This document shows, one piece after another, positions 12,897 to 35,913 of a stretch of 42,583 nt of DNA. Within the stretch, counting starts at the first letter, position 1; every line of letters begins with the position of its first letter. The position numbers and the translations under genes were made by a program. Source of the stretch: Candidatus Omnitrophota bacterium (GTDB lineage Bacteria > Omnitrophota > Gorgyraeia > 2-01-FULL-45-10 > JBDRSA01); assembly GCA_043825275.1 (NCBI GenBank), contig JBDRSA010000025.1:1-42583 (forward strand), written 5' to 3'. The notes under the pieces are model-generated. The model worked only from the letters and a program-made list of their open reading frames with translations. It was not told the origin of the DNA and did no database searches.

Positions 12897-12900
12897 ATAG

Positions 12901-12930
12901 CTGTCAGGTTCCAGTTGTCAGTTGCCAGTA
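12901..12930. repeat. 30-nt heptamer cassette between G1 and G2
   Basis: ctgtcag gttccag ttgtcag ttgccag ta, starting 5 nt after the G1 stop (12894-12896). Confidence 0.7.
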
Positions 12931-12960
12931 AAAGAAAAGAAGAAAAAAGGAAAAAGGAAA

Positions 12961-21900: not shown

Positions 21901-24900
21901 TACGAGATCGTTACACACGAGACTCCGGTGGAAACTGCTGAAAAAGAACCTGCCCAAGAGACCGTTTTAGAAGGTCCCGGAAAAGAGGTGCCTCCGCCAG
22001 TGGGAAGGATTCTCAAAGAGGAAGCTCCGGAAGAAGCTGCCGGTGAAGAAAAAAGCGCTCAAGAGGCCGACGCAGAGGCCCCTGGAACAGCCGGTGACGA
22101 TCTCATACATGTATCTATCGGAAACGCGATCAGATTCGACGAAGATGAGATCGAGCAAGCGCGTAACTTGACAAGAAGGGTATCTTCAAAAAAACGTTTG
22201 GCTGCTCGAAGTTTATCTGCTCAGGAACAGGATATAGTTGATATGGTCTTGCAGGGCGCAAGCGCGTCAGGGTTGACAGATCTTTATCTTGCGGCCTGGT
22301 CGGATCTACTAAAGAGCGCCATGATAAAGCTCGTGACGACAGACCTTCGCGAGCTGCCCCAGGCGTACGCGAAATACCGGAAGCTTTTTAGCGGATCAGC
22401 CGGTGCCGTGGGTAAGAAAAAACCGAAAAAGAAAACCGGCAGGAAAAAGCGCCATTCCCCGAGCGGGGAGGAAGACAGTTCGGAGTTCGGAGTCGGGAGT
22501 TCGGAGACAAAAGTGCGCCTGTCACCAGAGCACCAGAGCGCCAGCAACCAGAAAGCGAGTCGCGAATCACCCAGCGGGAAAAACAGTTCAAGGTTCAAGG
22601 TTCAAGGTTCAGAGAGCGCAGAGAGCATAGAAGAGAAAACCGGCGAACCGGTGATCCGTCGCCTGCATCGCGCTTCGGATCATTCCCTGATTCGTCGCCT
22701 TCAACACGTCTCGAATCACCCCCGGACTTTTCGTGGGGGGATCTTTCGTGGGGCTAACCGGCGAACCGGCGAACTGGCAAACCGGAAAGCCGGTCAACCG
22801 AAACGCCGCTCCCCCAGCGGGGAAAGACTGATCATCCCCGATGAGTATCGATCGGTGGGGAGTGAAAAATTCAGGGAGATATTCGGAAAAGAATTCGGCG
22901 GTCTCGCCCCCGACGCCGAACAGCTGGCGAGCCTGCTCGACCGCTTGAATCCGGCCGTTTTCGATATTCATCGCTCCGTTTGCGACAACAATGGGAGAGA
23001 GATATACCCGTATTGGTGTCATCCGATGTCCAGGGTAGTAGCGCAGGTTCTTAAAGATCGAGGATTCGATGTTGCTTCTGGCTCTTCAATCGTCGATGCG
23101 CAGGAGTTTGGATTTAATGTAGTGGTTGTCCACCATATAATAATACTTCAACTCTCGCAGGGGAACGTTCTCCTTGATTACACCGCCGACCAGTATTATA
23201 AAGACGCTGACGGCAACTGGCTCCACATCGAGCCGGTGATCATGCCTTGCGCCGAAGCCGAACGGGGAGCATTTTATGGAAGTGTGGAGAAAGGCGCAGC
23301 GATGAGATTAGATGAGAGAGACAGAAAGCTGTATGAAGCGATAAATGATGCTCTCAGCGGGAGCGAGGATAGAGCAAGAGGCGAAACTCCACGCGAGTCG
23401 CCGAGCGGGGAGAAAAGCGGTTCAGGGTTCAATGTTCAAAGTTCAAAGTTGCCGACTGCCGGGCACAAACCGTTAACCGAATACCGTAAACCGGTGCGTG
23501 AATCCCCCAGCGGGGAAGAGAATAGACTGTCTTCCAGAAGAAAGGGGACACGGAAAGAAGAACTGGCGCAGCGAAGAGTAAAACCTCTTTCAGATGTGGT
23601 TATCTCGAATATTGATAAGGGGCCTGTGGTTGCCGAAAGTGAGCTCAGAGAGTTGGTGGAGAGTACAGAAAAATTCGGCGGGGATTGGCGGAATCGAATT
23701 GTCACCGCCATGGCAGACCCGGAATCGGTAACATTGCTTGCGCGGCGTCACGGAAGAATCGTCGGGTTCATAACAGGGGTTGAGCCGGATGAGAGCGACC
23801 GGGAGCTTATCGGAAAACGTAACGCGCATTACTTGCTTGGTATTGGCGTGCGGCCTGAAGAGCAGGATCAAAGGATCGCGACGGCGCTCTTTGCGCGGTA
23901 TACTAAGACGCTCAAGAGGCTGGGGAAATACGATTCTGTAGCGCTTCACACAAGAGATGATCGGATTTTTCGAATAATTGCCCGCTATCAGGACAGAGTC
24001 ATCCGCACGCGCCGGAAACATACAGATCGTGGTATGCAGATCGTTCTCTCGCTTGGAAGCGACGGTCCGGAGAAAGCCAAGTTGCAAGAAAGAAAAGCCC
24101 CGCTTCGCCGCAGGTCGCCGAGCGCGGAGGGGGATAGTCCGGAGTTGGTAGTCCGTAGCCCTGATCGAGAGTTTCTTGTAGATAAGAGAATCTCGGCTGA
24201 GAAAGAGATCTATGAGAGGTTCAGAAGAGGTGATAACAGTTTTATCGCGTTTTTCGATTTTGATCACTCAAGGCACTATTTTACGACTTTCGGTGAGATG
24301 AAAATGAATAGAATCTTAACGGGCGGGTTTTTGCGTGCGCTTGAATTTCTGGAAGGAGAAGGAGTACTAGTATGGCCACCTCTTGGATTTGGCTGTGAGG
24401 AGATCGGGCTCTTATTCCCGGAATCTATGGAAAAAGAGGAAGTGCTTTCACTGCTCGTCTCTGCGAAGGAAGAGATCGAGAAAACCACCTTTCCACTTAA
24501 AGGGACCGCCGTGCTTCAAAAGATCCAGAAGACTGTACCCCTTTTGGGCAAAGCGAGAAGTGAATCGAATCAAAGAGTGCAGCAGGCGTGGCTTGAGAAA
24601 GAGATGAGAGACTATTTCTCGCAAATGAAGCGATGGAAGAATAAATACGGTCGGAGGACTATTGTCGATCTCGATTTAGAGCCCCCAGTAGTCTATAAAA
24701 AAATAAGCCGCAATTCCCCCAGCGCGGAAAACGGTCCAAGGTCCAACGTCCAAGGTCCAAGGCCGCCGGAAGATAGCGGAGCGCCGAAAACCGTAGACCG
24801 TAAACCGGAACGCGGATCGCCTACAGGCGATGACAACAAGATACTAGATACTAGATACCAGATACGAGATCCTCGCCGCTCATTAAACGCTGACATTGAC

Positions 24901-25575
24901 AGCCCCCAAGCCGTCGCTGCTGAGGTTGCTTCCGACATGAGGGAGCTTGAAGTCGACATGTTCCTCTCGAGCACCGAGATCGACTATAGCAAGGTCGCTA
25001 TTGTCGCCAAGCGCGGCCTCGCCCAGGACAAAGCGCGCGAGCATGAGGGCCTGATGCTTCTCGGCGAAACGCTCTGGTATGAATATAAAGTCATGAAGCA
25101 GAACCTCGTGAAGCTGATCGGTAAAGAGATCATCGAAGTCGATTCGACCGACGATCTTATCAGCGCCGTTGAAGAACTCATCGGTGACAAACCGGATGAA
25201 GGGTTCAGGGTTATCGTCCTCGATGACGGAACGTTGACCGGGAACCTGAGCGAAACAGATATCGCGAAAGGCACGAAAGGAAAACATTACTGTGTCATAT
25301 CCGCGCCGTTCGAGAAACTCGGCAAGAATTACGCGCAATTCGTCAATCTGAACGGCATGACGCTCATGGGCGTCGGCATTCTTTTCGATAAACTATCGCT
25401 ATTTGAACTGGCGTATAAAGTATTTCACGGCAAAAAACCGCCGAAGGATATTAAAGACCGATTCCTGAATAAGACCTTATGGATCATCAGCGTTCTGCCC
25501 CGAAGCGTCTGGTTCGATGCGGACGACTTCAAGAATCGGGTGGAGCTGCAGAAGCTCTTTCAAACCGCCGCGTAG
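12961..25575 (+). CDS. Giant mosaic protein G2 (about 4,204 aa from ATG 12961; the ORF track starts at TTG 12922)
   Basis: An uninterrupted 12.6-kb ORF. I prefer ATG 12961 (MMNKEQTV...), which is preceded by the purine-rich aaaaggaaaaaggaaa. The TTG-to-ATG stretch is part of the heptamer cassette and a poly-purine tract. Leader, HExxH block and C-terminal module are paralogous to G1. Confidence 0.9.
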   Translation: MMNKEQTVINRTMRRIQRIVSMILIPAFLLSNSVFAEVLIERASVATAVPYYISALLDEHKDDLKDLARGVTPVMDRNFVDRKEDFEKAWDLMCAERLALKIVSKIKQDEDRGSMADAERWLIRQIEDRADEYGMSAERKAFLVEAITREFRGEGADEDVIDAKEIFETRQVEDGGQASKGIEHSADASHQALGISRQEADDREQKTEDRGRDYRESPTGGKSRQTPVASFQEKQKINRERRTTHESEASASANRRRDGERSLPGGDAQRDGRKPYTVNRTPEARHSPSEDSDDPAAEEPDEEMGDFLDSLEVPLPQDQDFPIRILSSSFIKECELIREFGLKEETGAYIALYRYNGEPIGDLKTGGEFILKASIRPMAGMNALIGPTAGFHSKIGPSENVPDLYGVIDFGIEGRTVSGHKLYETAILKEFVEGPSLREYVMAMKTERSDSATEQQFLDLVTSVLRDYRDTYRINGWMNGDLDSRDIVVARARSGSGSRNVFIDNGTATEYGSDDPAAIARKRVVKALYCSFKRFMRLSEREPAEWCLPRDDGYSLTIALLDCLGLIADTPVDFQESGQHYIDVVESRVLSDIHSPQLIDRLKSVAAMREHVFTRIVRAHENNGRLEELAHVLNHYRKRFEDEDVFNALLRDVERIARGEPSLGPDRGLEGFGGAIERKSPSADISSEFIVHSSQITDSKEQELEDDQADDRTPKTEHREPKEPRRSSPSGDDKTEGPEREDSIDAIRDADTLSNYVDGLIADINDTQKDAQISFSDILASPEGYNESFFEPLYEILFRKLSRDFSGSEEFVEYCGRAIGQKGADILRVEMNGENLPLIGRIGGIRRNNNTKKASIELYGFLFFLLAREPKKYLARVYDEFMKTRPAEDIALGRRGISYHDRGDSVVHFYTKGVIFEGIVKPVYKKSLMPIYEHEKTVLEDRTGSDSAKKIGRALQYWQTQGYMPGNERLLERVKNFWKSTTVVELDMRTPLLFSDPDHNVVRSFHAGRTRRVLFFSKAYLDSLSIDSEADMKELAFWLSFGQRFIDMKDEMEAKGFDSRQIEQARSALSLLYFEDVFIKCQEDASLIDPLYIKDRCRRYMRQDTFIKYTTLLRETIEKEKEADALLRQADKTKAQEHYALAWFLYGKLLYKYDGMGLHSEAEKAYQNMTSATRECQLHNWGLLPYRVYMFDTFTALRFGKWPEFVEGLETFLTGKGYKRRMWREEANLLRNCLCGHEGIYRDFREVIERVIHSQMDAADTEVLSEITPHAERAFDLLKRFYEDGGPERCLEIDTLPTLPEGNNTEPKPDGSSDKKRRSPSGEEDSRQSTVRSPKIEKQDPRESPTGGDDRSGFIVHSSKLPTEKQDLRDSPTGGKSRQTPVASFQKKQKINREQRTTNESEAKRSLPGGDAQRDDRTPERRSPSADRHDSADAVEAASAAPDYREWLDRKVPSEWRDRLTPKQREFLTVYYQTDKVLETKKMSLFTKALLSLGVAGALGFPVFVVPSASSALTVAGLIFFMFVFIPTHEAGHYLAARAVNRASLRKTGRPVFSSIRYAWEGTFPQVRIEFADEFRQPKGFIDVIEWGPTVSLITSAAAFAITGLSIFFGWDIVSYFSSPTAYLTFAMFLFESFWRFGYSNDGSLSARTNKISRAFKKAKRSYSFLGEDPIHWGIEAEDFLIDAGDGIYWAVPEESWNETDLLADRVRVRARESLLRNRDVLFGMGQRRPDGAAIPDEPPENVSHIPFLSDTVRMDSIRYPMPFELSGELVKPDQGDREGKSSFIVRSVFNPSGRRYALYKVTDFPKELLHRSKGPEPSAGESARRSPSGEEISPESGARSREKKEDGYRANDEILDTRYKIQNPRTSPSAAIPPDADPAFFESSSPPYWMMGNDLIAKETKRLAAKLLDQASAERAGRPWSYEEIQKLLQTHPEITTKLQFEKAEYYHIPEIAAYANLALDEESRAFYDEAERIFKKIVHARSEEEILSLARHLKEINPRIAVVILKWLASTTEMHGSKYAAEERAARRFLRRFVNLFFGELGGREAINDYLVMAANMVQKARRERDLMPDEVAVVPVLTGGGTLRDFANTRLFFSVHRVRPLLFTRVMAQAYGVEEVDGRRRFTREGAEAVCEYLKLQEIIDDRIRHIVFLDVGQRGTIRELLTPILDKLSITSDLPVLYHGKYAEADRHLAHGLNDEPAWRPRDEELLWMAYILDDGFEKSIDVSNFVLEEKPRGRLPFFKLTNSLWFYRLVQERTQIAASGLPVYSRNLYDTWDYYRDEDENDPAFRHSPSGDDDAERKAQSLRPLRALGPEGAEQNLEARESAVSPSAAPDMEKINKAVKFAIDILKRDEEKRALRNTCKQHAPLLCYLLNRMGIDAEVSLVYYDNFMLREVHYCVKIPGQTPIYVDSLPEAHTHRISRDPGVGVILKPGDPDYELYVDGEKLAGQYSGGLANLTPGARMLFGVKEAEKEIDAFIARLTGRSSGSAAGEDEQPADDRTPETIHRKPEEPRRSSSGSDAARPDRDKALPDVPDDLLDRLPEREALIQIIRMVLDGRARGPRKLYGDQDRRFNVLRLWTLEGAAYQDIIGQVDFTYAAAREHKRRAIISLADWLAPYGVTRQEIKEVLKSIQKPQFLTMKLGDYRAWHVHYSNWVVGEAEAPDQIQFNKNDKEAWGQILALLRELHIVEPTFDEGTIIPRKDEHGYIIEIRDRNGEARHQYLTCFITGKMLNPVSSFGIVMRGSRQSELRLLLAGYGPADLLPALGDVKKSVLHLKGGDYQRVRLLKTPQGRSIYVTLSKRYTSDHIKPEISGESLADSAKTRITLYDPDTNEPVSDVIVWTDRKNWEWEDQRSDKYIDPSENGYIQWSAGQWRRYLAGSRRTPPRQDKIDTYPTPIQRSHRATSRVVRMLENEIDLGYEDECPYEQVKRCALKIPGDDRRFMGLWAPEVDPATTPPLVVLRLTGKTLINTLTIPAEYEIVTHETPVETAEKEPAQETVLEGPGKEVPPPVGRILKEEAPEEAAGEEKSAQEADAEAPGTAGDDLIHVSIGNAIRFDEDEIEQARNLTRRVSSKKRLAARSLSAQEQDIVDMVLQGASASGLTDLYLAAWSDLLKSAMIKLVTTDLRELPQAYAKYRKLFSGSAGAVGKKKPKKKTGRKKRHSPSGEEDSSEFGVGSSETKVRLSPEHQSASNQKASRESPSGKNSSRFKVQGSESAESIEEKTGEPVIRRLHRASDHSLIRRLQHVSNHPRTFRGGIFRGANRRTGELANRKAGQPKRRSPSGERLIIPDEYRSVGSEKFREIFGKEFGGLAPDAEQLASLLDRLNPAVFDIHRSVCDNNGREIYPYWCHPMSRVVAQVLKDRGFDVASGSSIVDAQEFGFNVVVVHHIIILQLSQGNVLLDYTADQYYKDADGNWLHIEPVIMPCAEAERGAFYGSVEKGAAMRLDERDRKLYEAINDALSGSEDRARGETPRESPSGEKSGSGFNVQSSKLPTAGHKPLTEYRKPVRESPSGEENRLSSRRKGTRKEELAQRRVKPLSDVVISNIDKGPVVAESELRELVESTEKFGGDWRNRIVTAMADPESVTLLARRHGRIVGFITGVEPDESDRELIGKRNAHYLLGIGVRPEEQDQRIATALFARYTKTLKRLGKYDSVALHTRDDRIFRIIARYQDRVIRTRRKHTDRGMQIVLSLGSDGPEKAKLQERKAPLRRRSPSAEGDSPELVVRSPDREFLVDKRISAEKEIYERFRRGDNSFIAFFDFDHSRHYFTTFGEMKMNRILTGGFLRALEFLEGEGVLVWPPLGFGCEEIGLLFPESMEKEEVLSLLVSAKEEIEKTTFPLKGTAVLQKIQKTVPLLGKARSESNQRVQQAWLEKEMRDYFSQMKRWKNKYGRRTIVDLDLEPPVVYKKISRNSPSAENGPRSNVQGPRPPEDSGAPKTVDRKPERGSPTGDDNKILDTRYQIRDPRRSLNADIDSPQAVAAEVASDMRELEVDMFLSSTEIDYSKVAIVAKRGLAQDKAREHEGLMLLGETLWYEYKVMKQNLVKLIGKEIIEVDSTDDLISAVEELIGDKPDEGFRVIVLDDGTLTGNLSETDIAKGTKGKHYCVISAPFEKLGKNYAQFVNLNGMTLMGVGILFDKLSLFELAYKVFHGKKPPKDIKDRFLNKTLWIISVLPRSVWFDADDFKNRVELQKLFQTAA
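13012..13115 (+). other. G2 N-terminal leader / signal-anchor
   Basis: RIVSMILIPAFLLSNSVFAEVLIERASVATAVPYY; see the G1 leader. Confidence 0.7.
13523..13833 (+). repeat. G2 linker cluster 1
   Basis: Heptamer arrays tagtcac caggcac taggtat cagtcgc and (NNacaga)x6. RESPTGG at 13603-13623. Cassette agtcgcc agacgcc agttgcc agtttcc ag at 13627-13656. ccgtaaa ccgtaca ccgtaaa ccgtaca follows. RHSPSED at 13813-13833. Confidence 0.8.
13925..14520 (+). other. G2 protein-kinase-like (RIO/Kdo-kinase-like) module
   Basis: ILKEFVEGPSL is hinge-like. GWMNGDLDSRDIVV (14395-14427) resembles the HGDLxxxNilv catalytic loop with N in place of H. VFIDNGTA (14467-14484) resembles the DFG/IDfg motif. Confidence 0.4.
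14992..15156 (+). repeat. G2 linker cluster 2
   Basis: RKSPSAD at 14992-15012. Cassette agttcag agttcat agttcat agttcac ag at 15016-15045. accgtac accgaaa accgaac accgtga accgaaa follows. RSSPSGD at 15136-15156. Confidence 0.8.
16909..17241 (+). repeat. G2 linker supercluster 3 (four motif copies)
   Basis: RRSPSGE 16909-16929, RESPTGG 16984-17004, RDSPTGG 17065-17085, RRSPSAD 17221-17241. Cassettes lie at 17011-17040 and 17089-17118. Confidence 0.85.
17390..17900 (+). other. G2 membrane block with HEAGH (M50/M50B-like intramembrane metalloprotease candidate)
   Basis: LIFFMFVFIPTHEAGHYLAARAV places HExxH (17545-17559) at the end of a TM helix, as in site-2 proteases. Further helices are LLSLGVAGALGFPVFVV, VSLITSAAAFAITGLSIFFGW and AYLTFAMFLFESFW. 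A downstream SNDGS could be the second metal-ligand motif. Confidence 0.5.
18433..18576 (+). repeat. G2 linker cluster 4
   Basis: RRSPSGE at 18433-18453. Cassette agtccgg agtccgg agcccgg agtcggg ag at 18460-18489. gatacta gatacta gatacaa gatacaa at 18522-18549. RTSPSAA at 18556-18576. Confidence 0.8.
19831..19962 (+). repeat. G2 linker cluster 5
   Basis: RHSPSGD at 19831-19851. gcagagcgcaaagcgcaaagc follows, then the near-palindrome cctccggcccttacgggccttaggcccggagg. The degenerate AVSPSAA is at 19942-19962. Confidence 0.7.
19975..20400 (+). other. G2 Cys-His-Asp module 1 (transglutaminase-like / papain-like fold candidate)
   Basis: TCKQHAPLLCYLLNRMGIDAEV (Cys codon 20050-20052), VHYCVKIP (His 20152-20154), IYVDS (Asp 20194-20196). 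Order and spacing resemble transglutaminase-like cysteine peptidases. Confidence 0.4.
20452..20523 (+). repeat. G2 linker cluster 6 (ADDRTPETIHRKPEEPRRSSSGS)
   Basis: Nucleotide-level copy of 15082-15156 (ADDRTPKTEHREPKEPRRSSPSGD). The motif is degenerate here, with the Pro lost. Confidence 0.7.
20575..20815 (+). other. G2 sigma-70 region-4-like / LuxR-like HTH segment (weak)
   Basis: LPEREALIQIIRMVL...RFNVLRLWTLEGAAYQDIIGQVDFTYAAAREHKRRAIISLADWL follows the L.erer.vl...eG.sy.eIa...s..tvk....RA...L pattern. Confidence 0.25.
22450..22824 (+). repeat. G2 linker supercluster 7
   Basis: RHSPSGE 22450-22470. Cassette 22477-22506 (agttcgg x4). RESPSGK 22561-22581. Cassette 22585-22614 (ggttcaa). 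Octamer array aaccggcg aaccggcg aactggca aaccggaa agccggtc aaccgaaa at 22756-22803. RRSPSGE 22804-22824. Confidence 0.85.
22840..23290 (+). other. G2 Cys-His-Asp module 2 (papain/transglutaminase-like candidate)
   Basis: YPYWCHPMSRVVAQVLKDRGFDVA (Cys 23017-23019), VVVHHIIILQ (His 23131-23133), VLLDYTADQY (Asp 23176-23178). The layout matches module 1. Confidence 0.4.
23392..23517 (+). repeat. G2 linker cluster 8
   Basis: RESPSGE at 23392-23412. ggttcag ggttcaa tgttcaa agttcaa ag at 23419-23448. aaaccgttaaccgaataccgtaaaccgg follows. RESPSGE at 23497-23517. Confidence 0.8.
23570..24060 (+). other. G2 GNAT-like N-acetyltransferase module
   Basis: RIVGFITGVEPD...HYLLGIGVRPEEQDQRIATALFARYTKTLKRLGKYDSVALHT fits GNAT motif A (V.P..rg.GiG..L......a...G...v.L.v). 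Confidence 0.5.
24109..24165 (+). repeat. G2 linker cluster 9
   Basis: RRSPSAE at 24109-24129, followed by gatagtccggagttggtagtccgtagcc (EGDSPELVVRSP). Confidence 0.8.
24180..24500 (+). other. G2 degenerate GGDEF-like (nucleotidyl-cyclase fold) module
   Basis: FDFDHSRHYFTTFGEMKMNRILTGGFLRALEFLEGEGVLVWPPLGFGCEEIGLLFPES aligns position for position with the DIDxFKxINDxFGHxxGDxVLxxxAxxL...RYGGEEF core as I recall it. The FG, IL and LR positions coincide. The signature is GCEEI instead of GG[DE]EF. Confidence 0.4.
24709..24894 (+). repeat. G2 terminal linker cluster 10
   Basis: RNSPSAE at 24709-24729. Cassette ggtccaa ggtccaa cgtccaa ggtccaa gg at 24733-24762. accgtagaccgtaaaccgg follows. RGSPTGD at 24811-24831. 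gatacta gatacta gatacca gatacga at 24840-24869. The degenerate RRSLNAD is at 24874-24894. Confidence 0.8.
24943..25572 (+). other. G2 C-terminal module shared with G1
   Basis: See the G1 entry at 12243-12893. It ends ...VELQKLFQTAA-stop. Confidence 0.8.
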
Positions 25576-30759: not shown

Positions 30760-31745
30760 CGAACAAACGGAATGGAAATTCAGCGAAGGGAAATCCCGTC
30801 CCATCGAGAAAGGTCCCGCTTTGGACGAAAAAAGATCTTTTGGGCCTCGAGTACCTGACGAAGGAAGAGATAACGCTCGTCCTCGATAACGCGCGTTCGT
30901 TCAAAGAAGTCCTCGCGCGGCCCTTGAGAAAAGTCCCCACCTTGCGCGGTAAGACCGTTGTGAACCTCTTCTACGAACCGTCGACGAGGACCCGTGTATC
31001 GTTCGAGCTCGCCGCGAAGCGTCTCTCCGCCGATGTTATCAACATCCTGAAAGAATCCTCGAGTATCCAGAAGGGCGAGACGCTTATTGACACCGGAAGA
31101 AATCTCGAGGCGCTCAAGACGGATATTATCGTGGTGCGCCACAACTGTTCGGGCGCGGCGATGATGCTCGCCCGTTCGGTCAATATCAGCGTCGTCAATG
31201 CCGGCGACGGCTGGCACGAACATCCGACGCAAGGATTGCTCGATATTTTTACCCTGCGTGAAAAGCGCGGCCGTATCGACGGGCTCAATGTCAGTATTAT
31301 CGGCGATATCGCGCACTCGCGTGTCGCGCGTTCGAATATATGGGGACTCACGAAGCTCGGCGCGAACGTCACCGTCTGCGCGCCCGAAAAATTGGTCCCG
31401 ACCGGCATCGAGAAGCTCGACGTGCGCGTCACCAATAGCGTCGACGAGGCGATCCGGGGCGCCGACGCGATCAACGTTCTCAGAATGCAGTTCGAGCGGG
31501 ATACCGCCGACGCGTTCCCTTCCAAGATAGAGTACTTCAAGGCCTTCGGCGTGACGGAAGCGCGCCTGGCGAAGGCGAAGAACGATATTATCGTTATGCA
31601 TCCCGGCCCGATCAACCGGGGCGTCGAGATCGCCGCCGAGGTCGCGGATAATTCGAATTCGGTAATTTTGGAACAAGTCACCAACGGTATCGCCGTGCGC
31701 ATGGCGGTGCTGTATTTAGTCGCGCACGCGAAAAAGAGTCAATAG
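30744..31745 (+). CDS. pyrB: Aspartate carbamoyltransferase catalytic subunit
   Basis: 333 aa. [13 protein letters not shown] and [10 protein letters not shown] signatures are present. It overlaps the end of pyrR by 16 nt and has a roughly 25-aa basic N-terminal extension relative to typical PyrB. Confidence 0.9.
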
Positions 31746-31807
31746 TCCACAGTCGACAATTGATAGTTTAAATTACGGTTTACGGTGTACGGTTAATGGT
31801 TTACGGT
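31746..31807. repeat. Heptamer arrays directly after the pyrB stop
   Basis: tccacag tcgacaa ttgatag at 31746-31766. ttacggt ttacggt gtacggt taatggt ttacggt at 31773-31807 (the reverse complement of the accgtaa family seen inside G1, G2 and pyrK). Confidence 0.8.
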
Positions 31808-31903
31808 CAAAAAATCGGAAAAGACAGCTAATGGGCTCAGGAGGAAATCAACGTTGAAATCACGCAGATTGCGCTACCGATCGTTTTTTAGTTTTTATTC
31901 CTT

Positions 31904-31959
31904 TACCGTACACCGTACACCGTTAACCATAAACCGTATTAGACTTTGGACTATCGACT
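31904..31959. repeat. Eight-unit heptamer array abutting the pyrC start codon
   Basis: taccgta caccgta caccgtt aaccata aaccgta ttagact ttggact atcgact, then ATG (31960). No Shine-Dalgarno-like purine run is visible. Confidence 0.8.
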
Positions 31960-33258
31960 ATGAGTAATTCCGATATTCTTATAAAGAACGGCAGAGTCGT
32001 TGATCCGGCCAACGGCCGGGACGGGGCGTTCGACGTGCTGATCACAGGAGGCCGGATCACGAAGGTCGAAAAGGGGATCACCAAGAAGAGCGCTGTCGTG
32101 ATCGACGCCTCCGGCATGATCGTAACGCCGGGCCTGATCGACATGCATGTCCATCTGCGAGAGCCCGGCAGGGAAGATATCGAAACGGTCCGCTCGGGTA
32201 CGCGCACCGCCGCCGCCGGCGGGATAACCTCGGTCTGCGCGATGCCCAACACGATGCCGCCGATCGATACCGGTCAGATGGTGCGTCATCTTGCCGGGAT
32301 CATCAAGAAAGACGCCGCGGCGAATGTCTATATCGTCGGCGCCGTCACGCGGCATCGTGAAGGCAGGGAGATCGTCGATATCGGATCGATCAAGCGGGAA
32401 GGCGCGATCGCGCTGTCCGACGACGGCAACTCCGTACAGGACGCGTCCGTGATGTCGGCGGCTCTCGAAAAAGCGCGCGATCAGGCGATGCTTATTATTT
32501 CCCACTGCGAAGATACGGCGATCTCGAAGAACGGCGTCGTGAACGAAGGGATCATCGCGACGAAGCTGGGTTTGCGGAGCATACCGAAGCGTTCCGAATA
32601 TGAGTTCGTCAAGCGGGATATCGAACTCGCGAAGAAGGCGAACGCCAGGATCCATATCGCGCACGTGAGCTGCAAAGAATCGGTCGAGATCATCCGCGCC
32701 GCCAAGAAGGACGGCGTCGCAGTCACCGCCGAGACCGCGCCGCACTATTTTACCCTGTATGACGAATACTGCTCAAAATACGATACTCGGACAAAGATGA
32801 ACCCGCCGCTCCGGTCGACTGATGACGTCAAGGCGGTCATCAGGGGGCTGGCCGATGGAACGATCGACGCGATCGCCTCCGATCACGCGCCGCACGGGAA
32901 ACACGAGAAGGAGATCGAGTTCGAATTCGCGGCGTTCGGTATCATCGGCCTCGAGACACTCCTGCCTTTGTCGATCTCCCAGCTTATTGACCATGAAGTC
33001 GTTACCTGGAGCCGGCTCGTCGAGCTCGTTGCGGCGAATCCGGCGAAGATACTGGGGCGCGTCAAAAAAGGGAGCCTTTCAGTCGGCAGCGACGCCGATA
33101 TTACGGTCATCGACCCGCATTGTCCGTGGGAATATCTGAAAGAAGATATTGTTTCTCAGAGCAAGAATTCACCGTTTATTGACTGGCAGATGTCAGCACG
33201 GGCGCGCGACGTGATCGTCGGGGGGAAGATCGTGCTTCGCAATAGTGCGTTGGTGTAA
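31960..33258 (+). CDS. pyrC: Dihydroorotase
   Basis: 432 aa. ILIKNGRVVDP...TPGLIDMHVHLREPG, then AIASDHAPH. Typical class I DHOase in pyr operon context. Confidence 0.9.
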   Translation: MSNSDILIKNGRVVDPANGRDGAFDVLITGGRITKVEKGITKKSAVVIDASGMIVTPGLIDMHVHLREPGREDIETVRSGTRTAAAGGITSVCAMPNTMPPIDTGQMVRHLAGIIKKDAAANVYIVGAVTRHREGREIVDIGSIKREGAIALSDDGNSVQDASVMSAALEKARDQAMLIISHCEDTAISKNGVVNEGIIATKLGLRSIPKRSEYEFVKRDIELAKKANARIHIAHVSCKESVEIIRAAKKDGVAVTAETAPHYFTLYDEYCSKYDTRTKMNPPLRSTDDVKAVIRGLADGTIDAIASDHAPHGKHEKEIEFEFAAFGIIGLETLLPLSISQLIDHEVVTWSRLVELVAANPAKILGRVKKGSLSVGSDADITVIDPHCPWEYLKEDIVSQSKNSPFIDWQMSARARDVIVGGKIVLRNSALV

Positions 33259-33305
33259 GGTTATTTGGTTTGTTGCGGTATAAGTTATCGAGCTAACTCC
33301 TGGAC

Positions 33306-33400
33306 GTCATTGCGAACCCCGGCGAAGTCGGGGTGAAGCAATCTCAGTCAGAATTACCAAAAAGCGAGATTGCTTCGTCGCTAGCGCTCCTCGCAATGAC
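33306..33400. repeat. MITE-like element, short copy E4
   Basis: gtcattgcgaa-ccccggcgaagtcgggg-tgaagcaatctc-agtcagaattaccaaaaagc-gagattgcttcg-tcgctagcgctc-ctcgcaatgac. Confidence 0.85.
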
Positions 33401-33422
33401 GAAGGGAGAGTAATAACAAAAT

Positions 33423-34388
33423 ATGAGTAACTCCATGAAGCAGATCAACGCGAAGATACTCAAGAACCAACAAGTCGGCGGTGATTACCGCAAGATGACC
33501 CTGGCGGCGCCGGCTATTGCCCGGAAGATCGCGCCGGGACAGTTTGTGCACGTTCTGTGTTCGAATTCCGCCGAACCGCTCCTCAGGAGGCCGTTCAGTA
33601 TGCATCGAGTAAGTCACCAGTCACCAGTCACCAGTCACCAGAAAAAGCGAAAAAATGAAAATTCCGGAACTATAGAAATACTTTATGAGATTGTGGGAAA
33701 AGGAACAGAGATCTTATCAAAAAAGAGATCCGGCGAATTTCTCGACATCATCGGTCCGCTCGGAAACGGGTTTTTTATACCGAAAACCGTTAACCGTAAA
33801 CCGGAAACCTCGATCTTGATCGCCGGCGGTATGGGTGTCGCGCCGCTCGTCGCGCTTGCGGAAGGATTAGTTCATAGTTCAAAGTTCATAGTTCATAGTA
33901 AAAAGAAGAAAAGAGAAGAAAATATTATCGTCCTGATCGGGGCGAAGACGAAAAACCATATTTTATGCGAGAAAGATTTTAAAAAGCTAGGCGCGAAAGT
34001 TCTTGTATCGACCGAGGATGGCTCGAAGGGGGGGAAAGGGCTTGTTACGACTCAGCTTGATCTTTCACTGTCAACTATGAACTATGAACTATCGACTATT
34101 TTCGCCTGCGGCCCCAACCCGATGCTTCAGGCGGTTTCGATGCTCGCCGCGAAGTACAATATCCGCTGTCAGGTATCGCTCGAAGGGCGGATGGCTTGCG
34201 GCGTCGGTGTTTGTTTAGGATGCCCGGTAAAGATTAAGTCCACAGTCGACAGTCCACAGTCGACAGAAAGAAAATTGAGAAAGCGCGATGTATCGGACGA
34301 CGGACGACGGACGACGGACGACGGATATATGATGGTCTGCAAAGACGGCCCGGTCTTTGACGCTGACCGCATCGACTGGGAGGAGTAG
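33423..34388 (+). CDS. pyrK: Dihydroorotate dehydrogenase electron-transfer (FAD / 2Fe-2S) subunit, carrying several in-frame repeat insertions
   Basis: 321 aa against about 255-260 aa for typical PyrK. The conserved core is present: PGQFVHV, LLRRPFS, GPLGNGF, IAGGMGVAPL, ACGPNPML, MACGVGVCLGC...VCKDGPVF. The extra segments coincide with the heptamer cassettes. Confidence 0.85.
   Translation: MSNSMKQINAKILKNQQVGGDYRKMTLAAPAIARKIAPGQFVHVLCSNSAEPLLRRPFSMHRVSHQSPVTSHQKKRKNENSGTIEILYEIVGKGTEILSKKRSGEFLDIIGPLGNGFFIPKTVNRKPETSILIAGGMGVAPLVALAEGLVHSSKFIVHSKKKKREENIIVLIGAKTKNHILCEKDFKKLGAKVLVSTEDGSKGGKGLVTTQLDLSLSTMNYELSTIFACGPNPMLQAVSMLAAKYNIRCQVSLEGRMACGVGVCLGCPVKIKSTVDSPQSTERKLRKRDVSDDGRRTTDDGYMMVCKDGPVFDADRIDWEE
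33612..33641 (+). repeat. 30-nt heptamer cassette inside pyrK
   Basis: agtcacc x4 (perfect) + ag; encodes SHQSPVTSHQ. Confidence 0.9.
33783..33809 (+). repeat. accgtaa-family array inside pyrK
   Basis: aaaaccgttaaccgtaaaccggaaacc; encodes KTVNRKPE. Confidence 0.7.
33869..33898 (+). repeat. 30-nt heptamer cassette inside pyrK
   Basis: agttcat agttcaa agttcat agttcat ag; encodes VHSSKFIVHS. The same family occurs in G2 at 15016 and 17011. Confidence 0.9.
34067..34101 (+). repeat. Heptamer array inside pyrK
   Basis: cactgtc aactatg aactatg aactatc gactatt. Confidence 0.75.
34237..34266 (+). repeat. 30-nt heptamer cassette inside the pyrK Fe-S loop
   Basis: agtccac agtcgac agtccac agtcgac ag; encodes STVDSPQST. 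Confidence 0.9.
34294..34325 (+). repeat. Perfect heptamer array inside the pyrK Fe-S loop
   Basis: cggacga x4 + cgga; encodes SDDGRRTTDDG. Confidence 0.9.
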
Positions 34389-34391
34389 CCG

Positions 34392-34973
34392 GTGAAACCT
34401 CTCCGCCCGACCGATATCGACGGAAAGAAGCTGAGCGTTACACTGGGAGTGCTCATGATAGCCCTTGTTGTCATGATCGGCCTGTCGGTCTTTATGGGAA
34501 GGACGCTTGAGGAATTGGACCGACAGAAAGAAGAGATCCGCAATAAGATCGATACGGGTCTTATCTTCATCTTCGTCAAGAATAAATACCGGAAGATCGG
34601 CGGCAGGAAGACGGTCTACCTCGATGAGCCGTTTGAGGCGCAGACGGTGAATACGCTCGCGCCGGCTATCTATCAGGGCAACAGGATGCCCGTCGGTATC
34701 AAGAAAGTGTATCTGACGGTCCCTCCCAATGTGGAGATATTCACCGGCGGCGAAAAGGGCAGGTTCTGGAGCCCGGTGGGCCGTCAGAACGCGAAAGAAG
34801 TGTTTGTCGTCATCAGAGAAACAATACCGCCGCGCAGCTCGATGAAGCTTCCCCTTGTTAATATGGTCTTTAAAACCGGAGGGACCTACGCGCTTCGCTA
34901 TCTGATCGTTCTTGAGAACGGAGTAACAGTAACCGACAGCGGAAATCTTCAGGTGCTTGAGAGGGAGTTGTAA
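34392..34973 (+). CDS. Hypothetical single-pass membrane protein wedged between pyrK and pyrD
   Basis: 193-aa ORF (GTG start) that exactly fills the pyrK-pyrD gap. It has one N-terminal TM helix (LSVTLGVLMIALVVMIGLSVFM). No family recognised. Confidence 0.5.
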   Translation: MKPLRPTDIDGKKLSVTLGVLMIALVVMIGLSVFMGRTLEELDRQKEEIRNKIDTGLIFIFVKNKYRKIGGRKTVYLDEPFEAQTVNTLAPAIYQGNRMPVGIKKVYLTVPPNVEIFTGGEKGRFWSPVGRQNAKEVFVVIRETIPPRSSMKLPLVNMVFKTGGTYALRYLIVLENGVTVTDSGNLQVLEREL

Positions 34974-34974
34974 G

Positions 34975-35913
34975 ATGGGCCGGACACAAGGAACCATGAA
35001 AACCGCTCTACGGGTAACAATCGGAAAACTGACATTTCCAAATCCCGTTATGGCCGCCTCCGGCACCTTTGGCGTCGGCGAAGAGTACGGCGCGTTCTTC
35101 CGTATCGGATCACTCGGCGCGATCGTTACAAAAACGATCACGCTCAAACCCCGAATCGGGAATCCGCCGGACCGCGTTGTTGAAACATCATCAGGGATGC
35201 TCAATTCGATCGGGCTTGAAAATAAAGGGCTCAGGGGGTTTCTCGAAAGTTCGCTTCCGTTCCTGAAGAAGCTCACCGTGCCGGTCATTGTCAGTATCGC
35301 CGGTGAATCGGCGCGCGAATTTGCCGAACTGACGCGGTCTCTTGACGATGTGCGGCGTGTCGCGGCCGTTGAACTGAACCTTTCGTGCCCGAATGTCGGC
35401 CATACGACGCGGATGATGGCGCAGGATGAGAAAGCGGCGTTCAGTGTTGTGCGCGCGGCGAAACAGAGCGCGCGGCGTATCGGCGTTATCGCGAAGCTCT
35501 CGCCGAAGGTGACCGATATCGGAGCGATCGCGTATGCCGCGGAGCGCGCCGGCGCCGACGCGGTCAGCCTGATCAATACGGTCCCGGGCGTCGCGATCGA
35601 TATTCATTCGAAGCGGTCGAGGCTCGGGATGCCGTCGGGCGGATTGAGCGGCCCGGCGATAAAGCCGATCGCGCTGGAAGCGGTACGGGAAGCGCGCCGG
35701 GCGGTCGATATCCCGATCATCGGCGTCGGCGGGATCATGACCGCCGAAGACGCGATCGAATTTATCCTCTGCGGCGCGAGCGCCGTTCAGGTCGGCACGG
35801 CGAGTTTCGTAAACCCGAAAGCGGCGCTTGAAGTGCTCGAGGGAATAAAGAAGTACGCGGCGAAACAGAATGTTAGAAACATTAGCGAATTGGTAGGAGC
35901 GGCGTGGGATTAG
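34975..35913 (+). CDS. pyrD: Dihydroorotate dehydrogenase B, catalytic subunit
   Basis: The ORF track starts at TTG 34957. ATG 34975 follows the upstream stop directly, and ATG 34996 is also possible. FPNPVMAASGTFG, NSIGLEN, ELNLSCPNV and GGLSGPAIKP are class 1B DHOD motifs. Confidence 0.9.
   Translation: MGRTQGTMKTALRVTIGKLTFPNPVMAASGTFGVGEEYGAFFRIGSLGAIVTKTITLKPRIGNPPDRVVETSSGMLNSIGLENKGLRGFLESSLPFLKKLTVPVIVSIAGESAREFAELTRSLDDVRRVAAVELNLSCPNVGHTTRMMAQDEKAAFSVVRAAKQSARRIGVIAKLSPKVTDIGAIAYAAERAGADAVSLINTVPGVAIDIHSKRSRLGMPSGGLSGPAIKPIALEAVREARRAVDIPIIGVGGIMTAEDAIEFILCGASAVQVGTASFVNPKAALEVLEGIKKYAAKQNVRNISELVGAAWD

Follow-up and report, generated by a model that had tools for sequence, protein, structure and literature searches.

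The pyrK gene of this Omnitrophota genome, as found in the stretch of DNA analysed here (42,583 nt, below called the window), is likely to be an intact, probably working gene that has been colonised by six copies of the genome's own heptamer-array cassettes at five permissive positions. The arrays are not gene damage but local representatives of a DNA repeat class that occurs genome-wide and fills tolerant loops. An earlier note on this DNA had proposed that pyrK carries five or six in-frame repeats, two of them within the 2Fe-2S cysteine loop. We found the ORF at 33423-34388 and, with TRF, six period-7 tandem arrays of ~30 nt each at five sites within it; two of the arrays (sites 5a and 5b) fall between C267 and C306, the third and fourth cysteines of the cluster. 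The features are listed below, with the source of each assignment in brackets.

33423..34388, + strand: pyrK CDS, 321 aa, of the DHOD B electron-transfer subunit type (ORF, Pfam, NCBIfam ranking, model)
33612..33641, + strand: site 1 array, unit AGTCACC, 4.3 copies, 100% identity (TRF)
33642..33665, + strand: A-rich tail of the site 1 cassette, coding for KKRKNENS (sequence)
33776..33809 (TRF 33779-33809), + strand: site 2 array, unit ACCGTAA, ~4.4 copies, after GNGF (TRF)
33868..33899, + strand: site 3 array, unit TAGTTCA, 4.6 copies (TRF)
33900..33923 (TRF row 33900-33922), + strand: A-rich tail of site 3, coding for KKKKREEN (TRF)
34067..34099 (TRF 34073-34099), + strand: site 4 array, unit AACTATG / TGAACTA (TRF, family consensus)
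34197..34223, + strand: codons of cluster cysteines C259, C264 and C267, in MACGVGVCLGC (alignment with 1EP3_B/5KSW_B; invariant columns)
34237..34266, + strand: site 5a array, (AGTCCAC AGTCGAC)x2 + AG, 4.3 copies (TRF, period 7 and 14)
34267..34293, + strand: A-rich spacer between the site 5a and 5b arrays, coding for ERKLRKRDV (sequence)
34294..34325, + strand: site 5b array, unit CGGACGA, 4.6 copies, 100% identity (TRF)
34338..34340, + strand: codon of the fourth cluster cysteine, C306, in VCKDGPVF (alignment)
34957..35913, + strand: pyrD (DHO_dh), catalytic partner of PyrK (PF01180, 251.7 bits)

The site 1 array, with a unit that contains no stop triplet, shows zero deviations and codes for SHQSPVTSHQ (S64-Q73); no target-site duplication was visible at its junctions. 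Two in-frame TAA triplets were patched in the site 2 array, a member of the ACCGTAA family (31+29 exact arrays in the genome). At site 3 the in-frame TAG junction was altered to AAG, the array coding for VHSSKFIVHS; the TGAACTA family of site 4 is the reverse complement of the site 3 unit, and there two in-frame TGA triplets were patched to TCA and TCG, giving LSTMNYELSTI. The site 5a array, also built of units without stop triplets, codes for STVDSPQST; the site 5b array has zero deviations and codes for SDDGRRTTDDG. Every insert peptide quoted in the earlier note is present in the translation, and the A-rich, Lys/Arg-coding flanks that it described are seen as tails after three of the arrays (KKRKNENS, KKKKREEN and ERKLRKRD).

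In comparison with the PyrK of Lactococcus lactis (1EP3_B) the protein has ~14 extra residues after HRV, 2 at the GNGF loop, 12 after the LAEGL helix, 4 before ACGP, and 24 between CLGC and VCKDGP. The last number, which agrees with the ~24 residues reported before, places the last two arrays between Cys267 and Cys306. Comparison with Omnitrophota orthologues gave a more selective picture, with net insertions at sites 1, 3 and 5 only: the site 1 array plus tail spans 21 residues versus a median of 5; on the other hand, the site 2 loop (13 residues, median 13) and the site 4 segment (19 residues, equal to the median) are length-neutral. Thus, the notion that all the segments are insertions is true for sites 1, 3 and 5, while at sites 2 and 4 the arrays are replacements, and STMNYELS at site 4 can no longer be counted as a further insertion.

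The assignment of the gene to pyrK rests on several profile matches. The 321-aa ORF matched PF10418 (DHODB_Fe-S_bind) with 49.4 bits (cut-off 23.9), in two stretches interrupted by the site 5 insert, and PF00175 with 38.3 bits. In NCBIfam the PyrK equivalogs NF000798 and NF000799 were the top-ranked families, yet both scores were below cut-off (161.7 bits versus 219 and 168.2 versus 314, respectively). Four array-poor Omnitrophota orthologues, with 198-218 bits versus the cut-off of 219, had a smaller shortfall; as these orthologues were also under the cut-off, the shortfall of the PyrK in question is due in part to lineage divergence and in part to the inserts. The conserved blocks are intact, as had been stated earlier: all 34 of the 34 columns invariant across 119 homologues are retained, C259, C264, C267 and C306 among them, and the RRPFS and GGxGxAP motifs are conserved. 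The closest orthologues, all from outside the genus and family of this genome, are ~53-63% identical.

The AlphaFold2 model (pLDDT 84.9, pTM 0.85) had as its top PDB matches 5ksw_B and 1ep1_B, with TM of 0.86 and 0.82 normalised to target. Model confidence was low only at sites 1, 2, 3 and 5, including residues 61-80 at site 1 and the site 5a array; the site 5 spacer was predicted as a helix (residues 278-286, pLDDT 55-68). The expectation that the repeats sit in tolerated surface loops is in line with the low confidence at these four sites; it does not extend to site 4, where the array segment forms a confidently predicted helix-turn-strand (pLDDT ≥90).

The likeness to L. lactis PyrK (1EP1/1EP3, 5KSW) includes both Pfam domains, the four-cysteine motif, the predicted fold (TM 0.82-0.86, as above) and an adjacent class 1B pyrD. 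As to differences, the two proteins are 28% identical, the Omnitrophota protein is 59 residues longer (321 versus 262 aa), its gap between the third and fourth cysteines is 38 residues versus 14, and a conserved ORF without an assigned family is present between pyrK and pyrD, which starts 570 nt downstream of pyrK.

Both pyrK and pyrD are single-copy and belong to a complete pyrR-B-C-K-D-F-E cluster, with pyrB, pyrC, pyrF and pyrE also flanking the pair and with pyrR as a candidate identified by PF00156 only. As PF01180 had one match above cut-off in the genome, pyrD is its only DHOD gene; the search for a second pyrK or another DHOD that had been proposed as a check found, at the level of profiles, no such back-up in the genome. 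Two other ORFs with PF10418 matches (contigs C40 and C93) were considered as back-up pyrK genes and rejected, one being NfnA/GltD-partner-like and the other hydrogenase-gamma-like; these paralogues of the same fold contain zero arrays. With the core fold, the invariant residues and the operon context intact, pyrK looks functional, and its product is probably an intact, working electron-transfer subunit of a class 1B DHOD. The earlier suggestion that this pyrK might be compromised does not agree with its open frame and single-copy position in a complete cluster. We infer that the cassettes are neutral for enzyme function.

The arrays of pyrK belong to an abundant class. A first, stricter detector found 64 arrays, and TRF was used instead; it gave 463 non-overlapping period-7 arrays in the 2.02-Mb genome, most of them 27-34 nt long. 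Array length is tightly fixed near 30 nt, intergenic copies included, and period 7 is predominant (190 strict arrays versus no more than 10 at periods 5, 6, 8 and 9). Four unit families (GTATCTA, GGTTTAC, AGTTGCC and GTTCATA) account for 303 of the 463 arrays. A common form is (AGTNNNN)x4+AG, in some cases followed by an A-rich 3′ tail; genome-wide, such tails 3′ of AGT-type arrays number 25 versus 1. A GGG tract is absent from all pyrK units and from all four main families. About 65% of arrays lie outside crude ORFs, though these ORFs make up 91% of the genome, and 164 of the 463 lie within them. Inverted partners no more than 600 nt apart are frequent (86 versus 15 expected). With 6 arrays in 966 nt against a genome mean of 0.23 per kb, pyrK is the 1-kb stretch with the highest array density in the 2.0-Mb genome.

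A similar pattern was observed in pyrK genes across the phylum. We saw 53 period-7 runs in 44 Omnitrophota pyrK genes versus none in 69 pyrK genes from outside Omnitrophota. In 41 Omnitrophota pyrK genes arrays were confined to the five loop sites, with 6-15 genes per site; none of 234 conserved-block windows contained an array. Relatives thus show repeats at the same loops rather than ordinary loops free of repeats. All 44 orthologues examined have pyrK in frame, and in 52 of 118 PyrK homologues the third and fourth cysteines are separated by 20 residues or more. At any one site the units and peptides differ completely between orthologues; at the position of site 5b, for instance, the P0007 orthologue carries (CGAACGA)n.

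The arrays also have a distinctive relation to stop codons. Two pyrK arrays with stop-triplet-free units are perfect; if the remaining ones are idealised, five in-frame stops appear, all five of which are removed in the actual sequence, and 6 of the 11 deviations of the pyrK arrays fall in these idealised stops. Genome-wide, the deviation rate is 0.34 per position at in-frame ideal stops versus 0.078 elsewhere, with 0.14 and 0.06 at stop triplets in the two wrong frames.

At nucleotide level the arrays are conserved beyond synonymous sites. At sites 3 and 4, 27-30 of 30-33 nt of the array are identical in orthologues (at site 3, 28-29 of 30 nt for P0002, P0013 and L085), whereas in the same comparison only 0.39-0.43 of third positions are identical at flanking codons with identical amino acids. 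Within arrays, conservation at third codon positions is no weaker than at the first two. Furthermore, the cassette (AGTCACC)x4+AG with its A-rich tail is present at site 1 in the window and in orthologues L083 and L087 from distant genomes, and again at site 5 of L087. The exact word of this cassette occurs in 7 of 201 Omnitrophota genomes, including those of L083 and L087 (G009 and G019, respectively). A common vocabulary of the whole phylum was considered as the reason for nucleotide conservation and rejected, as the distribution is patchy: (AGTCACC)x3 was found in 7/201 and (AGTTCAT)x3 in 2/201 genomes. Given the stop patching, the conservation above synonymous sites and the presence of one cassette at different sites, we conclude that pyrK arrays act as DNA-level elements and not as selected peptides. 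Direct selection on the DNA or RNA, which a purely selfish or neutral view would not predict, is an equally good explanation of the conservation.

One could speculate that the arrays are functional RNA or DNA cis-elements, with sites 3 and 4 forming a ~30-bp stem around 175 nt of coding sequence; such a stem could act in mRNA stability or processing (e.g. as an RNase III substrate) or in translation of the pyr operon. The region from site 3 to site 4 does fold well (z = -4.26; 0/200 shuffles fold as well), and duplexes between the two sites of -30 kcal/mol or lower were present in 8 of 44 orthologues versus 1.96 expected (cross-genome permutation, 0/5,000 reaching the observed number). Four complementary unit pairs were involved, AGTTCAT:ATGAACT, AGTCCAC:ATGGACC, AGCGCAT:ATGCGCT and AGCGTAT:ATACGCT; conservation exceeding that of synonymous sites is in favour of a stem, and intergenic arrays are typically found as inverted pairs. 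However, the excess was not significant under a stricter null made of other arrays of the same loci (5/12 versus 4/20, P = 0.18). Also, the chance that two random arrays of the genome are complementary is 6% and, by our estimate, 20-30% if both are of AGT type. Due to this P-value and to the frequent chance matches that a small unit vocabulary allows, we consider the complementary arms of sites 3 and 4 as no stronger than suggestive of a conserved intragenic hairpin. In many orthologues only one of the two sites carries an array, or the units are non-complementary, and stop patching weakens the pairing. The site 5 insert folds in an ordinary way (z = 0.08), a value that led us to reject a hairpin inside it, and there were zero Rfam matches at gathering score anywhere in the window. 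We regard an explanation by cis-elements as unlikely.

It is still less probable, in our opinion, that the inserted peptides were selected as protein features, Lys/Arg-rich loops with a seven-residue period providing new interaction or regulation, with the DNA periodicity as a by-product. Extra segments do occur in the same loops of many orthologues, a K-rich run is present at site 3 in most orthologues, array or not, and the site 5 spacer is predicted to be a short helix. Yet the complete difference of units and peptides between orthologues at one site is hard to expect from peptide selection; the same DNA units occur mainly outside genes, on both strands, and deviations follow stop avoidance rather than a peptide consensus. 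The equal conservation of third codon positions and the low model confidence of the inserts point in the same direction.

A role of short-unit repeats in phase variation is known (PMC4692102), and 7 is not a multiple of three, so gain or loss of one unit would shift the frame and could switch pyrK off or on; two of the arrays are perfect tracts of 4.3-4.6 units. Nevertheless, we find it highly improbable that the arrays are contingency tracts of this kind: the tracts are short (~4 units) and located mid-gene in a housekeeping enzyme, 44 of 44 orthologues are in frame, and the ~30-nt length is kept between genes too. Moreover, the parts covered by metagenome contigs showed zero length variants, though such contigs lose rare variants.

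Metagenome contigs from two studies match 33754-33968, 33867-34133 and 34297-34500; a contig of run X2 matches the site 2 array exactly, the site 3 array is covered by contigs of runs X1 and X2, and the right junction of the site 5b array by an X1 contig, with the junctions of site 1 and of the first site 5 array uncovered. Metagenome (Logan) contigs break at the arrays. An origin of the cassettes in assembly or polishing errors, or decay of pyrK into a pseudogene, is hardly credible: contig breaks, uncovered flanks of sites 1 and 5a and an NCBIfam score under the equivalog cut-off may be cited in favour, but exact contigs from two studies bridge site 2 to site 3 and site 3 to site 4, arrays are present at the same loops in independent assemblies of dozens of other Omnitrophota, and a gene with an open frame, all invariant residues, a confident AlphaFold2 fold and array-poor orthologues likewise just under the cut-off does not look like a pseudogene.

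The reading we prefer, with pyrK as a host of cassettes of the genome's own repeat class, may be compared with known systems. Among the closest are the heptameric SSR or STRR-type repeats, GGGNATC in Xanthomonas and GGGGAYT in Nostoc, along with the Calothrix STRR (Rehm et al. 2015, PMC4692102); heptameric SSRs show a marked preference for about four units (PMC4692102). The Omnitrophota arrays are similar in having tandem 7-nt units in about four copies, hundreds of them per genome, over-represented between genes and near ORF ends; a mostly intergenic location was indeed found (~65% of arrays in the ~9% of the genome outside ORFs), pyrK being an exception. They differ from the Xanthomonas and Nostoc repeats in that the units (AGTCACC, AGTTCAT, ACCGTAA, CGGACGA) have no G-tracts although the four-unit length is retained; also, there are several families per genome, and many copies lie in frame in core enzymes at positions common across the phylum. 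In the literature library that was searched, zero papers linked Omnitrophota with heptamer repeats.

The analogy with Rickettsia palindromic elements, drawn earlier, is correct in part. These elements, as summarised in PMC10969869, are ~100-150 bp long and palindromic, with a family-specific conserved peptide. Both are multi-copy DNA repeat families inserted in frame in unrelated metabolic genes, adding a tolerated peptide compatible with the fold; on the other hand, the pyrK elements, tandem arrays of 30 nt, have no internal palindrome, stems arise only between two arrays, the peptide is set by unit and frame, and some copies replace native sequence with length unchanged. Bacterial tandem repeats of constant size and variable sequence, 20-21 nt and 52 nt, have also been described (Subirana & Messeguer 2021, PMC8161180). 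These share with the heptamer arrays a single repeat size with several species-specific sequence families, implying that it is the size that is constrained rather than the sequence; they differ in repeat size (20-21 or 52 nt versus 7-nt units), are non-coding and longer, and were found in Bacillus and other groups, not Omnitrophota.

The cassettes would then be ~30-nt DNA-level elements of four to four and a half 7-nt units, of few families per genome, mainly intergenic and often in inverted pairs able to form hairpins. We infer that new copies arise by copying from existing ones, possibly by gene conversion, by template switching or by a putative dedicated activity. Inside genes, selection would retain copies (i) with length a multiple of three, (ii) located in loops or tolerant segments and (iii) with in-frame stop triplets removed by point changes. 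Sites 1, 3 and 5 would thus have become disordered surface excursions, that of site 5 between the third and fourth Fe-S ligands, and at sites 2 and 4 segments of the native protein would now be encoded by array DNA.

It is a doubtful but possible extension that Omnitrophota have an active, family-specific process that copies ~30-nt heptamer cassettes into defined positions, interiors of essential genes included. If so, this process could overwrite native coding sequence with an array of the same length (pyrK sites 2 and 4 being examples) and would hold copies near family consensus across genomes with saturated synonymous sites. The cassette families might then be exchanged horizontally among members of a community, and might be tied to small mobile units with heptamer arrays as inverted ends; on contig C128, arrays of the CGGACGA family, the family of pyrK site 5b, flank a PF05635 gene, a possible example of such a unit. 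To test a process of this kind, pyrK with its six cassettes would offer the highest density of natural targets. G-quadruplexes, the published explanation for the preference of bacterial heptamer repeats for four units, fit poorly with units that lack G-tracts. Heptamer arrays break short-read assemblies and lower family-model scores, and they can mislead annotation of Omnitrophota genomes. A single-copy protein of core metabolism carries six repeat-derived segments with its predicted fold kept, and the 24-residue excursion between two Fe-S ligands is a natural experiment on tolerance of Fe-S loops to insertions; pyrK is thus a compact, testable example of phylum-wide 7-nt arrays acting at DNA level.

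The pyrK gene lies in a pyrimidine cluster with the order phosphoribosyltransferase-domain gene (candidate pyrR), pyrB, pyrC, pyrK, 193-aa ORF, pyrD, pyrF, pyrE. The database proteins nearest to its product (45–54% identical) come from Candidatus Omnitrophota and bear the annotation dihydroorotate dehydrogenase electron-transfer subunit. An earlier note had described repeat insertions in this gene; Tandem Repeats Finder (TRF) called six arrays in it, all with period 7.

The pyrK ORF and its period-7 arrays
33423–34388, + strand: pyrK ORF, 321 residues, with PF10418 (PyrK-type iron-sulfur domain) and PF00175 (NAD-binding domain)
33612–33641: site 1 array, AGTCACC, 4.3 copies, perfect
33779–33809: site 2 array, ACCGTAA, 4.4 copies
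33868–33899: site 3 array, TAGTTCA, 4.6 copies
34073–34099: site 4 array, TGAACTA
34237–34266: site 5a array, AGTCCAC/AGTCGAC, 4.3 copies
34294–34325: site 5b array, CGGACGA, 4.6 copies, perfect

A-rich stretches located 3′ of the first, third and fifth arrays encode KKRKNENS, KKKKREEN and ERKLRKRD, respectively. In alignment with L. lactis PyrK (1EP3_B) the product has about 14, 2, 12, 4 and 24 extra residues at sites 1 to 5, the last of these sites being situated between CLGC (C264, C267) and VCKDGP (C306). As the TRF arrays and this length comparison agree with it, the description made in the earlier note is correct, including the placement of two arrays (5a and 5b, between C267 and C306) within the iron-sulfur cysteine loop.

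Repeat structure was looked for at the pyrK loops of relatives (DNA of 41–44 Omnitrophota genes), and period-7 arrays were found at the same five sites only, in 6–15 genes per site, with none in 234 conserved-block windows; 53 period-7 runs were present in 44 Omnitrophota pyrK genes versus none in 69 pyrK genes from other phyla. Loop lengths in the query, compared with the medians of 118 homologues, were 21 versus 5 residues at site 1, 13 versus 13 at site 2, 20 versus 14 at site 3, 19 versus 19 at site 4 and 38 versus 16 at site 5 (at least 20 residues in 52 of the 118). Therefore, there is net insertion at sites 1, 3 and 5, with the query pyrK near the upper extreme, while sites 2 and 4, also called insertions in the earlier note, are length-neutral. 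Array units at any one site vary widely between orthologues; the site 4 peptides include LSTMNYELST, LSTIDYRLST, LSRTPYAVRRT and LASRNPQPATR.

In one orthologue, P0007 (L116:586-1473), site 3 holds an 8-nt variant, (GTCACCAG)x4, and (CGAACGA)n is present at site 4 and again at site 5b. The P0007 site 5a array is the reverse complement of these arrays; its iron-sulfur loop insert is thus a hairpin pair, unlike that of the window. The 193-aa ORF between pyrK and pyrD of the window (34392–34973, + strand) has a membrane helix at the N-terminus and matches no Pfam family. Since a similar ORF (34% identity over 116 aa, E = 4e-19) adjoins P0007 pyrK in the same place (L116:1504-2235), it is a conserved gene within the pyr cluster of some Omnitrophota.

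Period 7 is prominent throughout the 2.02-Mb genome: a strict detector found 190 arrays, versus at most 10 at periods 5, 6, 8 and 9. Whole-genome TRF produced 553 period-7 rows, equivalent to 463 non-overlapping arrays, mostly 27–34 nt long; 303 of the 463 came from four unit families (GTATCTA, GGTTTAC, AGTTGCC and GTTCATA), and the unit families of all six pyrK arrays are common ones in the genome. About 65% of arrays were located outside crude ORFs, though such ORFs make up 91% of the genome; arrays inside ORFs cluster in linkers of giant proteins. No other 1-kb stretch is as dense in arrays as pyrK, which has six versus a genome mean of 0.23 per kb. Reverse-complement array pairs, often 0–150 nt apart, were observed 86 times (15 expected with shuffled units); AGT or ACT was present within the unit in 204 of 463 arrays (20% expected), and, with reference to the AGT strand, 25 A-rich tails were 3′ and one was 5′.

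Several such elements were seen at other locations. The pyrB–pyrC spacer (31745–31960) is a nested hairpin element that extends as far as the start codon of pyrC; (TTACGGT)x5 at 31773–31807 and (ACCGTAA)x4.9 at 31905–31938 make up the inner arms, and the outer ones consist of AGTCCAC/AGTCGAC-type repeats, a unit shared with pyrK site 5a. Two giant ORFs upstream of pyrK (1833–25575 of the window) carry many pyrK-type heptamer cassettes in linkers, 19 arrays being in the ORF at 12900–25575 by itself. The only PF05635 (‘23S rRNA intervening sequence protein’) gene of the genome (contig C128:4664-5024) lies between inverted arrays of the CGGACGA/CGGTATA family, the unit of pyrK site 5b (C128:4619-5068). 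A second repeat family, not related to the heptamers and very widespread, is represented just 5′ of pyrK (33300–33420) by two GC-rich palindromic repeats, GTCATTGCGA...GAAGCAATCTC and GAGATTGCTTCG...CGCAATGAC; their summed contig depth was 2,000–9,000 in three groundwater metagenomes.

Stop patching, nucleotide conservation, presence of the same cassette elsewhere and architecture are evidence that the pyrK arrays are DNA-level elements. Since 7 and 3 share no common factor, any stop triplet that a 7-nt unit contains comes into every reading frame within three tandem units. Units without stop triplets (sites 1 and 5b) form perfect arrays; idealised consensus copies of the remaining pyrK arrays would have five stops in frame (two TAA at site 2, one TAG at site 3 and two TGA at site 4). 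Point changes remove all five, and 6 of 11 deviations fall in those codons. For in-ORF arrays genome-wide, deviation from the array's own consensus per position was 0.34 at in-frame ideal stops; it was 0.14 and 0.06 at stop triplets of the two wrong frames and 0.078 elsewhere. In comparison with the orthologues P0002, P0013 and L085, 28–29 of 30 nt were identical in the site 3 array and 27–30 of 33 nt in the site 4 array; third positions within these arrays matched in 7–9 of 10–11 cases, whereas third-position identity in flanking conserved blocks was merely 0.39–0.43 at aa-identical codons. The cassette (AGTCACC)x4+AG with an A-rich tail is present at site 1 of the window and of two other loci, L083 and L087, as well as at site 5 of L087; exact (AGTCACC)x3 was found in only 7 of 201 phylum genomes, scattered over classes, among them G009 and G019, from which L083 and L087 come. 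In metagenome run X1, with the source organism at ∼10x, summed depth was ∼19,000 for perfect (AGTCACC)n 31-mers (site 1) and ∼500 for perfect (CGGACGA)n 31-mers (site 5b); therefore, the same arrays must occur at many other loci or in many other members of the community. The AGT-type cassette is in forward orientation at site 3 and in reverse at site 4.

One could alternatively think of a selected RNA or DNA structure. The site 3 and site 4 arrays of the window are reverse complements, able to form a long-range stem with 175 nt of conserved coding sequence in its loop (z = −4.26). Site 3:site 4 duplexes of −30 kcal/mol or below were present in 8 of 44 orthologues, against an expectation of 1.96 when arrays were permuted across genomes (5,000 such permutations never gave as many), with four different complementary unit pairs. 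However, two random arrays of the window genome are complementary 6% of the time, and the excess over other arrays of the same loci was not significant (5/12 versus 4/20, P = 0.18); for these reasons the stem stays a live but unproven rival. We found no unusual fold in the site 5 insert and no match to Rfam families in the window.

The interpretation offered in the earlier note, tolerated surface loops or a compromised gene, was supported in part; no sign of gene decay was found. The AlphaFold2 model (119 sequences) had mean pLDDT 84.9 and pTM 0.85, with low confidence limited to residues 61–80, 121–130, 151–170 and 251–300, i.e. sites 1, 2, 3 and 5; site 4 was modelled as helix-turn-strand with pLDDT of at least 90. 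Among structural matches, chains of L. lactis PyrK came first (target-normalised TM 0.86 and 0.82), and the product retains the residues of all 34 columns, four cysteines included, that are invariant in the alignment of 119 sequences. NCBIfam PyrK equivalogs were the best matches, yet below cut-offs (162 versus 219 bits); as array-poor orthologues score 198–218 bits, the shortfall is partly due to lineage divergence and partly to the inserts. A search for a second copy showed that the genome carries one pyrK and one DHOD gene; two further PF10418 ORFs belong to other subfamilies and both lack arrays. PyrK function itself we infer.

Dozens of independent assemblies have arrays at these same loops, which argues strongly against an assembly artefact. 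Support for each cassette was tested on assembled contigs of public runs, groundwater metagenomes containing parts of the pyrK region. One 215-nt contig, which comes from another study, is an exact match to 33754–33968 (sites 2 and 3), and contigs of the probable source study match 33867–34133 (sites 3 and 4) and 34297–34500. Contigs stop at arrays; coverage includes sites 2, 3 and 4 but not the unique sequence flanking sites 1 and 5a.

Heptameric repeats are over-represented in some bacteria, with four units preferred; in Xanthomonas and Nostoc this preference has been connected with G-quadruplexes, and the repeats lie mostly between genes (PMC4692102). The units of the genome studied here have no G-tracts and are often coding. 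Rickettsia palindromic elements, as described in PMC10969869, are repeat elements inserted in frame into metabolic genes; they differ in being ∼150 bp long with conserved peptides. Tandem repeats with constant size and variable sequence have been described with 20–21-nt and 52-nt units (PMC8161180). In the library searched, no paper joined ‘Omnitrophota’ with ‘heptamer’.

This pyrK is best read as a probably working PyrK in which a lineage-wide class of heptamer-cassette repeats is present in six copies. To the description of this class pyrK contributes the highest local array density in the genome, an iron-sulfur loop tolerating two cassettes, a clear case of stop patching, arrays more conserved than synonymous sites, and a suggestive pair of complementary arms (sites 3 and 4).
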